DNA of 50,676 nucleotides from Girardia tigrina (taxonomy: Eukaryota): assembly GCA_001938485.1 (NCBI GenBank), contig MQRK01228241.1, positions 1-50,676 of the forward strand. Reading direction: 5' to 3'. Positions 1-34,759 of this stretch are shown here, piece after piece. A program made the position numbers and the translations under genes. Below the pieces are notes generated by a model. The model did not search any database and had not been told where the DNA came from. It was given only the letters and a program-made list of their open reading frames with translations. Within the stretch, counting starts at the first letter, position 1. Each line of letters starts with the position of its first letter.

Positions 1-263
1 GCGACCGTTGCTAGGGAACCAAGGAACCAATCAGAAGCGTTTCTAAGGTGATCGCGACCGTTGCTAGGGAACCGTGGACCAATCAGAAGCGTTTCTAAGG
101 TGATCGCGACCGTTGCTAAAGTGATCGCGACCGTTGCTAGGGAACCGCGCGGCCAATCGGAAGCGTTGTCAAGGTGATCGCGACCGTTGCCATGGTAACC
201 GCGACCGTTGCTATGGTGATCGCGACCGTTGCCATGGTAACCGCGACCGTTGCCATGGCAACC
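1..263. repeat. GC-rich tandem array of a 21-bp unit (GCGACCGTTGCYAWGGTRAYC) with ~52-bp higher-order units; contains RFX X-box-like palindromes and CCAAT boxes
   Basis: GCGACCGTTGC starts at 1, 54, 106, 127, 180, 201, 222 and 243. Perfect palindrome GTTGCCATGGCAAC at 249-262; CCAATC three times. Truncated by the window start. Confidence 0.9.
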
Positions 264-275
264 ACGGTAGTTAGT

Positions 276-305
276 AACACCCCCCCCAGGGGGGGGGTTG
301 TGTAG
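276..305. other. C8-A-G9 hairpin closing the GC-rich array; probable terminus of a mobile element
   Basis: AACACCCCCCCC-A-GGGGGGGGGTT followed by GTGTAG, then an abrupt switch to AT-rich DNA. Confidence 0.5.
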
Positions 306-974
306 AGAACATACATTTTTCCCCTACTTAATCACCTGCAATATCAATTAAATTGAGTAATTATTTCTTGTGGAATATGAGTACTTATTGGGCGCAGAAC
401 GCAAATACTCACACCATATTCCATATTTATTTAAATGTGTAAAGACATTTCCAAGTTTAAAAGAAAATCAGATTTTTCAAGCAGAATTTTATTGAAAGTA
501 ACAAACTACATGTACACGAAAAGCGTAGTATAAAACCGAATTGTTTATCGCTAAATCTATTGGATATTTTATTCTAAGTTTATTATTTTATTTATCATAT
601 ATTTTTGTATTTTTCTTGAATTTCTAGTTTTAAAATTGTTTTACAGTATTTTTTTAGACGGCTTTCTTAATAAATTTACTAATTTTGTCAACAAAAACTT
701 ACCATAAAGTGTTGTGAGAATATTTTTTATCCAAAAACTCTTTGTTAGTAGCGACATTTACTCTTCTTATTTTGCGAAATAACTATTATCCACAAAGTAT
801 ATAGTTATTCTTGTTTGCTAAACAGTTCTCAGAAGTTAATTTGTATAACATTACATGACTATATCTACTTTCATTCATAAAAGGTATCATAAATAGTTAT
901 AAAAAATTAAAAATTTTAAATTAAATATTTGGATATCTTACTTTTACATGTTATATATTTGAATACACACATAC

Positions 975-1763: not shown

Positions 1764-2080
1764 TATATATAACAAATTTATTATGGCTAAACATTAAGCA
1801 TTACTTCCCATGTACTCTTCTGATTCTGAATTGAGTTAATTGAAGAATGTTTAATGAAAAAAGTTTTAGTAATTATCACCACAAAGAGTTAAAGTGATGT
1901 TGGTTTTAATTTATTTAAAACTGGAAGAATTTTCAGATATATTAATCTCAATAAGAACAAAATATCTAAGCTGAAATACCAATGTACTTTACATCGAAAA
2001 TAATTTGTAGTCAACATAGTATTGGGATTTATATTATATATGATATATAAATGATGCTATTGATAAATATAAAAACTCAC

Positions 2081-2260
2081 TAGCGATACACATTTTCCCA
2101 TCCTCATCGAATCCGTCGGGACAGTCAGACTCCCCATCGCAGACAAAGTCTAATGACAAACAGTATCCATACCATTTGCAGGGCCACGGGGTTTTCTCAG
2201 GACAGTGATTTCCTAACAAAAAGTATTTGTCGTTGTCTCTCGGCAAGTTTCTCAATGCAG
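2081..2260 (-). CDS. Prohormone-4/IDLSRF-like precursor, LDLa-domain exon (third identified coding exon)
   Basis: Encodes (P)ALRNLPRDNDKYFLLGNHCPEKTPWPCKWYGYCLSLDFVCDGESDCPDGFDEDGKMCIA: six Cys plus the acidic CDGxxDCxDGxDE LDLa motif. Ends in CIA before a GTGAGT donor, resembling the CTA-KRPP junction of prohormone-4. Acceptor ...ATGAAG at 2261-2262; alternative in-phase acceptor TTTTTGTTAG near 2213. Confidence 0.8.
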
Positions 2261-2993: not shown

Positions 2994-3761
2994 TTAGGTT
3001 GTCCTAAAAGTTCCCGGTCAATAATGAAAATACAAAATTTTTTTCGAATTTCTTTTTGGTATTATTTATTTGATATTGATATATAGATTTATTTATAGCA
3101 TAATATGGACTACGAGATTACAAAGCTTGAATCCGTGTGTTGCTGCGTCACTAATGGAATGAAGGCAATTTGCAAAGTTGATGGTACACAAACGATCGAA
3201 AAAAGTACGGCAATTGATTGGTTCAAGCATTTCCATAAAGAAATCTTTGACTTGAATGACCGTCCTTGTTCTGGGCGACCAACAAAATTGGATAACGATG
3301 ACTGGCAAGCAGAGTTGGACATGAAGCCTTCGTCAAGCACTCGCGATTTGTCATTTAAACTTGGAGTTGGCAAGTCAACCATACATTGGCATTTGAAGCA
3401 GCTCAACTGTGTGCACAAGAAACCGCGTCAAGATCCACATAAACTCACCAAAGCACAGGTCGATAAAAGAGTTCAAATTTGCCGACAACTGCTACAGAAT
3501 CCACGAGATGACCGCTTTTGGAAACGAATTGTGATTTCAGACGAGAAGTAGGTCTACTTGGTCAACCACAACCGAGACAAGCGACGAGTTCCACCGTGTC
3601 AAGCAACACCGTTAGTTCCAAAACAAGATCGATTTGGCTTGAAAATCATGTTGTGCGTCTGGTGGAACTTTGAGGGAGTCGTGCACTTTGAGTCGATTCA
3701 GAACGGCCAAACAATCACTGCAGAGCTCTATTGTCAACAGCTGAACCGTGTCTACGAGAAG
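2994..3761 (+). mobile_element. Mariner transposon, 3'-truncated pseudogene
   Basis: TIR-like TTAGGTTGTCCTAAAAGTTCCCGG; ORF with WFKHF...DRPCSGRP HTH, IVISDEK*VY (W to stop), KIMLCVWWNFEGVVHFE and ITAELYCQQL; ends before the second catalytic Asp. Confidence 0.9.
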
Positions 3762-4075
3762 CGCAAATATGCGAGAACGTACTGCTGAAGGTTTGCCTAG
3801 AATTAATAACTCAGTTGAGGGTTGGTATAATACGTTTCAGTCATCTGTTTCTTGTCATCATCCTACCATTTACACATTGGTTGATCATTTCTACTGTGAA
3901 CAAGACTTGACAGAGAAAGCTATAAGTTGTATATTTAATGGAATTTCTGGTAAAACAGCCAGAAAATCTAAGTAATTTCAATTATAAAAAAACGTCTTGA
4001 TGAAATTATTTCTACTTATAAAGGACGCGAATTTAAAGATTATTTGCACTCAGTGGTTTTTAATATTGATATTAG
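3762..4075 (+). mobile_element. MULE/Mutator transposase C-terminal remnant abutting the mariner
   Basis: EGLPRINNSVEGWYNTFQSSVSCHHPTIYTLVD matches the MULE PRTNNxxEGWH...HPxIW motif. Confidence 0.75.
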
Positions 4076-33307: not shown

Positions 33308-33576
33308 GTAAGAAATAATATATTTGGAATTATATTTAACAATAATAATTTTAAAAATAATTGATAAATAAAAATAATGACAATTTGAAAATTTAATTAT
33401 CAAAACAAATGATTTAAATAACAAAATAATAATAAAATGTACAAAATAATTAATAAATAAAAAAATAATGAAGTAACTTAAAATAATTTTTTTTTAATTA
33501 TTTTGCTTTTTTTAAAAAAAATATCATAATTTATAAAAATAAAATTTATGATTTATTGTTTTTAGTTATATCTGAA

Positions 33577-33739
33577 ATGAAAACGCTTTTATCTTCGAGC
33601 TCTATTGTTTTGAAAATTCATATTGTACACGCTGGGGCCACCAAATCGATCCCCTTGGATTTGAATGCTCCCATTTATGCGGTCTGTGAACATATTCGAT
33701 CAATGATCCGAGAAGCTGAACCAGAAACCGGGAAAGAAA
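33577..33739 (+). CDS. TLN: Talin, coding exon 1 (FERM F0)
   Basis: MKTLLSSSSIVLKIHIVHAGATKSIPLDLNAPIYAVCEHIRSMIREAEPETGKE aligns with talin LSLKISI..VVKTMQFEPSTMVYDACRIIRERIPEA; GTAAAC donor, phase 1. Confidence 0.9.
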
Positions 33740-34759
33740 GTAAACTGAAATTTGTTTTCTTTATAATAAACCATTGCCTGATCAAGTAAATTTTAAATAA
33801 TTTTCTATAAAAAACTTGTAAAATGTCCTTATTATTTTAAGAAAAAATATTTTGTGTCATAATTAATTGATGTTTGGTTATTTAATATATTTTTTAGAAT
33901 TTATTATTAGTCCTATTATTACTATTATTATTATTATTATTATTATTATGGGAATCTGTAACTACTATAGGAGATTCATAAATGGTTACTCCAAAAAAGC
34001 CAGGGCGTTAGAAGGTTATGCTGATCGAATAAACTAGTGTGGACAGACTCATTTGGATAAATAAACTGGAAGATAAAGAGAAAAACAAATAGTAAGAAAT
34101 GTCGAAAAGTTCAAAAAATTTAAAGAAAAGGGGGAATGTTAACAATTAAAAATGCTATGAAAATTTTGAAAGAAGATTATATTAAATATGTACAAATTAA
34201 AATTTTTATATAATTAAACATGCAACGTTTGAAAAAATAAAATTACTAAAATTAAGAAGATCAATTAAATTGCTAATAAAAAAATTTTTTTGAGAGTTTT
34301 AATATAATATAAAAAGTAAAATGTATAATTTTTATATGTGGAGCGATTTTAAAAAAAATTAATAAAATTAAACGAAATGATTAAATATTTAATAATGTTA
34401 TCATAATTTCAAATTGATTTATAAAAGTAATGAAAAAAATCAAGTAATCAAATATATATAAAATTTTATCACTACCTTTAATTATTTTTATTTCAATCGT
34501 TAAAAGTGAGTTAAAGGATTTTGGAATATAATATTTGACCTTTCAACTCCTTTCTACAGTTTATAGAAGTAATGTGGGTTTAGAGATGGTGTATTTTTAT
34601 TTATATCGGTTTAAGCTTTATAAAACAAATTGTTTCTCGAAGAAAATAATAAGTTTGTTTAAATATTAGAATTAAACATTTTTTTGTATGGTATAATAAC
34701 ATTTTTTATGTCAGAAATATCTATTAGTAATAATTCCGACGATGTTCCAAGAACCTCTA

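Follow-up and report, generated by a model that had tools for sequence, protein, structure and literature searches.

The DNA analysed here (the window, 50,676 nucleotides) is an entire contig, and its most conspicuous feature occupies the first 328 bases (Table 1), where a tandem array of palindromic units is cut at base 1 by the contig start. Window 1-328 has a GC content of 56%, compared with 24% in the remaining window, and a CpG observed/expected ratio of about 1.2, compared with 1.03. Thus, of the CpG-rich island described in the initial annotation, the GC richness stands, and the segment is GC-rich more than a classical CpG island. Tandem Repeats Finder reported periods of 21, 42, 52 and 74. 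With the X-box consensus GTNRCC N0-3 RGYAAC (as printed in the available part of bioRxiv 2022.11.11.515474), three exact sites (186, 228 and 249) and seven sites with at most one mismatch were found, compared with means of 0.01 and 0.21 in 500 dinucleotide shuffles of the array, and with none and four, respectively, in the remaining 50 kb; among 20,000 random 21-base units drawn with the array composition, 0.04% contained an exact X-box. The palindromic box at 249-262 is identical to the RFX site printed in PMC11344851, and the X-box at 7-19 agrees, on the minus strand, with nine of ten letters of the RFX5/7-type site in the same source. The three CCAAT motifs (at 27, 79 and 153) all fit the NF-Y context consensus YYRRCCAATCAG (PMC3507159). 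An X-box/CCAAT array of 21-bp units in AT-rich DNA, as first annotated, is therefore confirmed by consensus matches and shuffles alike.

Table 1. Features of the window around the array
Feature	Position	Strand	Remark
Right-hand TIR of a Polinton/Maverick family, outer portion, truncated at the contig start	1..328	+	
13-base X-box, 1 mismatch	7..19	.	
CCAAT box, NF-Y-type context RRCCAATCAG	23..34	+	
13-base X-box, 1 mismatch	60..72	.	
CCAAT box, NF-Y-type context	75..86	+	
13-base X-box, 1 mismatch	133..145	.	
CCAAT box, NF-Y-type context	149..160	+	
Tandem 21-base units	164..263	.	exact X-boxes 186-199, 228-241, 249-262; one-mismatch box 207-220
C8-A-G9 subterminal inverted repeat (hairpin)	280..297	.	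common, not universal in the family; not the terminus
Terminal motif, ends CTACT (AGTAG from the element's own 5' end)	314..328	+	
Likely 6-bp target-site duplication	329..334	+	same six bases flank the likely partner end, G000:C195520 (L340)
Host LDLa exon, GT donor facing the element	2079..2204	-	context only

Half-sites in the window array follow one another at 32, 21, 31, 21, 21, 32, 21, 21, 21 and 21 bases. Across the ends of the family described below, 516 of 672 such spacings are in phase, 402 of them at exactly 21 bases; the helical phasing proposed initially is thus real, but it is largely a consequence of the tandem copying of a single 21-base unit. Elsewhere in the window, a broken mariner-type transposase lies at 3099-3790, and an exon with a weak match to the talin F0 domain at 33487-33789 (plus strand) indicates that a second host gene starts in the window.

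Copies of the sequence agree up to position 328 and diverge beyond it. The array had been thought to end sharply at the C8/G9 hairpin, but the element continues past it to 328, and the hairpin lies about 30 bases inside the element end. Its stability is ordinary (z -0.81), and it is present in 85 of 103 ends and missing from one TIR subtype, so that it was discarded as a special terminal structure; an Rfam scan yielded no score close to a gathering threshold. Exact matches to the last 15 bases number 10,884 genome-wide, compared with one for the control, which would correspond to at least 5,400 elements, assuming two ends per element. A genome search with the array gave 56 matches among the 40 scored of 3,373 candidates. 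The array is also very deep in an independent-looking contig set, which may be the source sample; a second DNA run, which is of another organism, gave no coverage of the stretch.

Window 1-328 is almost certainly the TIR of a Polinton/Maverick family, so that the mobile-element terminus of the initial annotation is borne out in its Polinton option by TIRs and 6-bp duplications. The hallmarks were compared with those given in the accessible parts of PMC8097293 and bioRxiv 2023.08.22.554363. A scan of the sampled loci for ends gave five end pairs, the fifth of which belongs to another family; all four two-ended family copies (L097, L140, L195 and L339) are flanked by exact 6-bp duplications, and in a virion-gene element (C223974) five of the six target bases agree. 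The TIR measures 244 bases in L097, more than 850 bases in L134 and about 2.1 kb in L195, compared with a published range of 100-1500 (bioRxiv 2023.08.22.554363, as far as available). The family ends in AGT...ACT, and AGTAG represents five of the six letters of the (AGT)2 given in PMC8097293. The L097 copy, which sits within a mariner, is 2,980 bases long, has inverted ends flanked by an exact 6-base duplication, and encodes a Pox_A32 ATPase that scores above the cut-off. A miniature copy of 86 bases (L339:585-670) consists of two TIR tips and an exact 6-base duplication, and at two loci (L085 and L086) an apparent non-LTR retrotransposon fragment, recognised by eye, lies directly inside the TIR.

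The gene content of the copies agrees with this assignment. A protein-primed family B polymerase (PF03175, DNA_pol_B_2) lies between TIRs at four loci (L134, L136, L140 and L195), and an rve integrase scores above the cut-off at two others (L109 and L117). The gene run by the TIR comprises ATPase, integrase, penton-like, PW-like, capsid and protease-like frames. The penton-like and PW-like genes, putatively named from their position and characteristic motifs, gave no Pfam hit, and the protease-like frame matched Peptidase_C5 below the cut-off (E 0.041). Pfam, a PDB sequence search and the Atlas gave no identity for the capsid frame. However, a database protein (P0001) is 95% identical to this frame at L178, and its predicted fold (pLDDT 85) matches the capsids of iridovirus, PBCV-1, Sputnik and mavirus; by way of this model, the capsid is of the double jelly-roll type. 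The family's polymerase also carries an Endonuclease_7 (HNH-type) domain (L136:6459-7799 and L140:5142-6683). Among the pPolB2 examined in bioRxiv 2023.08.22.554363, such an insertion is called unique to nematodes and oomycetes in the part available, and a flatworm-type host with an HNH-bearing polymerase would widen this range.

The genes are distributed over two kinds of element with the same TIR, one organised as TIR-polymerase-TIR and the other as TIR-ATPase-integrase-capsid-protease-TIR, a division in which we have high confidence. None of 26 polymerase loci and none of 44 virion-gene loci carries both polymerase and virion genes. Sequence 3' of the protease runs into the TIR at 11 of 13 loci and into the polymerase at none; sequence 3' of the polymerase runs into the TIR at 7 of 13 and into a virion gene at none. 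Junctions were followed at 28 additional loci of each kind. All of those with at least 300 bases (22 of 22 and 22 of 22) enter their own conserved junction and none the other's, and with at least 1,200 bases the TIR is reached in 10 of 14 and 6 of 13. One gap-free TIR-polymerase-TIR element (L134) and one virion element of 9,045 bases (C223974), in which both tips are present and a single 50-N gap separates integrase from ATPase, exemplify the two halves, which measure 6-8 kb (polymerase) and 9-10 kb (virion). In both, the first gene (polymerase or ATPase) begins about 2 kb from the TIR tip and is oriented inward, and both ends of both halves carry X-boxes. The inner TIR is as similar between the halves (identity 0.88) as within them (0.88-0.89; 20 and 12 copies). 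This survey covered top-scoring hits in stretches of up to 10 kb from a fragmented assembly, a setting in which rare undivided copies are possible. The core genes of the family are thus not assembled in one 13-25 kb element, and because polymerase and virion genes lie in separate elements, the family is filed as a two-part variant rather than as a canonical Polinton.

Both halves have been under purifying selection, as judged from changes shared by at least three copies. For these the pN/pS ratio is 0.08 for the polymerase, 0.28 for the capsid, 0.42 for the ATPase, 0.20 for the integrase and 0.00 for the protease, counts being small (seven synonymous and 14 non-synonymous changes for the ATPase, five and none for the protease); singletons gave 0.69-0.83 (13-26 copies per gene). 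Since shared changes are mostly synonymous and singletons near neutral, we infer that both halves were functional while multiplying.

The copy in the window probably has its other end at the start of contig C195520. That end is the best match among 100 ends, has the same six flanking bases and is the only one of the 100 to share the subterminal variant of the window. These six bases occur at three ends, no more often than by chance, so that the case for the partner rests on the subterminal variant. An inner 19-base repeat of the window copy is present at 11 of 114 ends; it adjoins 2 of 45 polymerase loci and none of 58 virion loci. With its interior unassembled, the window copy may be of the polymerase or the virion kind. 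On the host side, the LDLa exon (Pfam PF00057) is oriented toward the element and terminates in a GT donor, in line with the proposed location in an intron downstream of that exon, but no clear next host exon was recognised in the likely partner contig. A homologue search with the exon found nothing and so did not confirm the label "neuropeptide-like", and the link between the array and the gene of the LDLa exon is positional only.

Selection on the motifs has to be considered separately for inserted copies and for inherited variants. Post-insertion mutations were scored across 95 ends (712 units). Of the private mutations, 104 hit the 14-base core and 67 the 7-base spacer, compared with an expectation of 2:1 (p=0.11). 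CpG decay as the source of spacer variation was dismissed, as no excess was observed (p=0.72), and a search of the genome for a DNA methylase domain, weak owing to introns, found none. Judged from these counts, inserted copies decay neutrally, with no sign of host selection on them: the cores are no better conserved than the spacers, which the initial annotation had itself named as evidence against its reading, and its ready-made enhancer for the host gene is not supported.

Variants inherited within the element behave differently. The GTTGCY half-site is kept in 22 of the 24 common unit types, while the second half-site varies much. Among 11 common Y-unit types collected without CCAAT as an anchor, CCAATC is invariant (11 of 11) and the two bases 5' of it are always purines (22 of 22), while the four bases before those vary and include transversions. 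RRCCAATC is thus present in all 11 common types, in agreement with the consensus in PMC3507159, and CCAAT is intact in 105 of 113 units. Likewise, a diverged TIR subtype retains X-boxes with different spacers. This pattern is suggestive of selection on the replicating element rather than on host insertions, and the motifs kept in its lineages support the RFX and NF-Y identity assigned initially. It should be noted that the unit types are related by descent and represent few independent events, and that the tolerated changes (C/T and A/G) are also the commonest mutations, which counts against a reading as motif selection.

On balance we lean towards the reading that window 1-328 is the TIR of a high-copy split Polinton whose X-box/CCAAT array is the element's own RFX/NF-Y enhancer. 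Its parts differ in strength: judged from the motifs, the element probably makes use of host RFX and NF-Y, and a role as transcriptional enhancer is a slightly favoured account of that use, while a timing to the germ line, drawn by analogy, is rather doubtful. The host genome encodes RFX domains and NF-YA domains, and these factors would read the TIR array as the enhancer of the element. Such use of host RFX has a precedent in RFX1/3, which bind the AAV ITR as well as viral enhancers (PMC5760533). Transcription of both halves would then start at promoters some 2 kb in from the ends and proceed inward, and a single shared array would activate the two in the same host cells; such co-activation in one cell, which we infer from the shared array, is what a split element needs. 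Any DNA with family ends, gene-less copies included, would be a substrate in trans for polymerase and integrase. Once inserted, copies then decay neutrally. The expressing cells might be male germ-line or stem cells. This is the least certain step, a guess from precedents: in planarians, the spermatogonial stem cells are maintained by NF-YB (PMC4909293), and RFX2 drives mouse spermiogenesis (PMC4498915), each as described in the available parts of these sources. Still more tentatively than the enhancer itself, the family could be seen as a segmented Polinton, an endogenous dsDNA virus with polymerase and virion genes on separately integrating segments, which would be joined by identical ends with an RFX/NF-Y enhancer, timed by it to the same germ-line or stem cells, and would have spread tens of thousands of RFX sites. 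Against an enhancer speak the distance of about 2 kb between the array and the first genes, and the other Polinton families of the same host, which showed no X-box clusters adjoining their genes and multiplied nonetheless.

An alternative, which we hold to be unlikely but not negligible, is that the palindromic units are sites for the element's integrase or terminal protein, or a neutral minisatellite, and resemble RFX and NF-Y sites by coincidence. Long TIRs commonly contain subterminal repeats, private mutations are neutral, and similar minisatellites are widespread. However, two unrelated host motifs would both have to be matched closely by accident, only 0.12% of random 14-base palindromes drawn are exact X-boxes, and CCAATC stays invariant while its 5' neighbours change, including by transversion. 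About as unlikely is a role of host RFX and NF-Y at the same TIR in protein-primed replication, packaging or chromatin opening instead of transcription. Host factors act in this way at adenovirus ends; the best X-boxes are no more than 150 bases from the tip and about 2 kb from the genes, and X-boxes are found at both ends of both halves. Nevertheless, the pairing of CCAAT/NF-Y with RFX is of the promoter type (PMC8287911 and PMC11344851, as far as available), and the effect of RFX in AAV was on expression (PMC5760533).

Co-option by the host, with the window copy as an enhancer of the LDLa-exon gene or with the family having rewired the host's RFX targets, is improbable. The window copy does lie 1.75 kb past the LDLa exon, and about 41,000 strand matches to the strict X-box were counted genome-wide (palindromes counting twice), compared with seven in the control. 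Yet the cores show no excess of conservation after insertion at the 95 ends, the window copy is an ordinary family member, and no exon link was found in the partner contig. Helitrons and Helentrons have neither a long TIR nor a target duplication, insert before T and end in CTRR. A Helitron-like 3' end, the other terminus considered initially, a contaminant or a misassembly has practically no probability, in spite of the subterminal hairpin: two-ended copies have TIRs and exact 6-bp duplications, Polinton genes lie inside copies, insertion has no preference for T (after the end in 30 of 114 flanks), and the many genome copies have thousands of different flanks.

The enhancer reading has also to be seen beside similar arrays and other Polintons. 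X-box minisatellites with a period of about 20 bases were found in 119 metagenome stretches from other organisms, and Polinton gene hits in none of these (80 + 39, the latter mostly short). At six metagenome loci (L226, L236, L255, L261, L267 and L275) X-box minisatellites lie in unrelated animal-type contigs, one of which (L267) has 25 X-boxes mixed with ATTGG. The array alone is thus a recurrent feature of animal repeats and stands out less than the split genome, and the X-box motif may owe its spread to something other than enhancer function in an element. Scans of viral and metagenome sequences with the family ATPase gave none or four distant loci, all without X-box clusters, and a tandem X-box pattern was found in no viral contig.

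The host genome contains at least three other Polinton families, with polymerases at most 35% identical (L130, L133, L142 and L154-L171); a first look gave 2,257 candidates for PF03175 and 1,335 for PF21738. The array family inserts into these families, inside or beside which its ends lie. In one of them, 41-base tandem palindromic repeats follow the integrase (L160:6750-7200), and a 333-base inverted repeat has AGTAGT ends (L160:8159-8491), both without X-boxes. As a further observation on this genome, 31 COX1 matches (G000:C162626, C127535, C228904 and others), many with stops, are likely nuclear copies of mitochondrial DNA, best read with table 9, on the basis of few codons, which fits a flatworm host.

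Polintons have been described as single, self-contained and mostly low-copy elements. A split family with a shared, readable host-factor array is a direct test case for Polinton activation, and also a case of genome segmentation in the double jelly-roll lineage. In addition, the mover of a very abundant repeat that supplies many strict RFX sites now has a name; the abundance of strict X-boxes matters for the prediction of RFX targets in this genome. For the host gene beside the window copy, the consequence is probably little.

The family shares with Polintons/Mavericks, as characterised in the accessible parts of PMC8097293 and bioRxiv 2023.08.22.554363, the TIRs, the 6-bp target duplications, the AGT...ACT ends, the protein-primed polymerase, rve integrase, A32 ATPase and double jelly-roll capsid, and purifying selection on the core genes; with vertebrate Mavericks it probably also shares the order integrase-penton-PW-capsid-protease, the penton, PW and protease here being putative. 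In contrast, described Polintons are single all-gene units of 13-25 kb, whereas here elements of 6-8 kb and 9-10 kb are separate and the ATPase travels with the virion genes. In copy number the family greatly exceeds vertebrate elements, for which the reported maximum is about 290 (PMC8097293). The available parts of the two sources make no mention of an X-box array, and a literature search for RFX together with Polinton TIRs found nothing relevant.

The AAV ITR D sequence and the EF-C/EP sites of hepatitis B virus and polyomavirus are similar in that RFX sites lie in a terminal repeat or enhancer and host RFX is used for expression (PMC5760533, in part). Those are single sites in vertebrate viruses with binding shown, whereas up to 17 predicted sites are present here together with CCAAT boxes in an integrated invertebrate element. 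The X-Y module of MHC class II (RFX5-RFX7) likewise places an X-box at a constant distance from an adjacent NF-Y CCAAT box (PMC7753138, PMC2278383, PMC8287911 and PMC11344851, as far as available). Its X-to-Y distance is given as 17-18 (PMC7753138), with X-box limits unstated in the part available, which makes the comparison with the 28 bases from half-site end to ATTGG (minus strand) in our array uncalibrated. In the Polinton family, the next half-site follows CCAAT by 33 bases in 96 of 125 cases, and unlike in MHC class II the module is repeated many times. The RFX5/CIITA machinery is also vertebrate. Bidnaviruses, although ssDNA insect viruses with parvovirus-type capsids, without an integrase and not endogenous at high copy number, resemble the split family in their two segments, their common terminal sequences and their Polinton-type polymerase.
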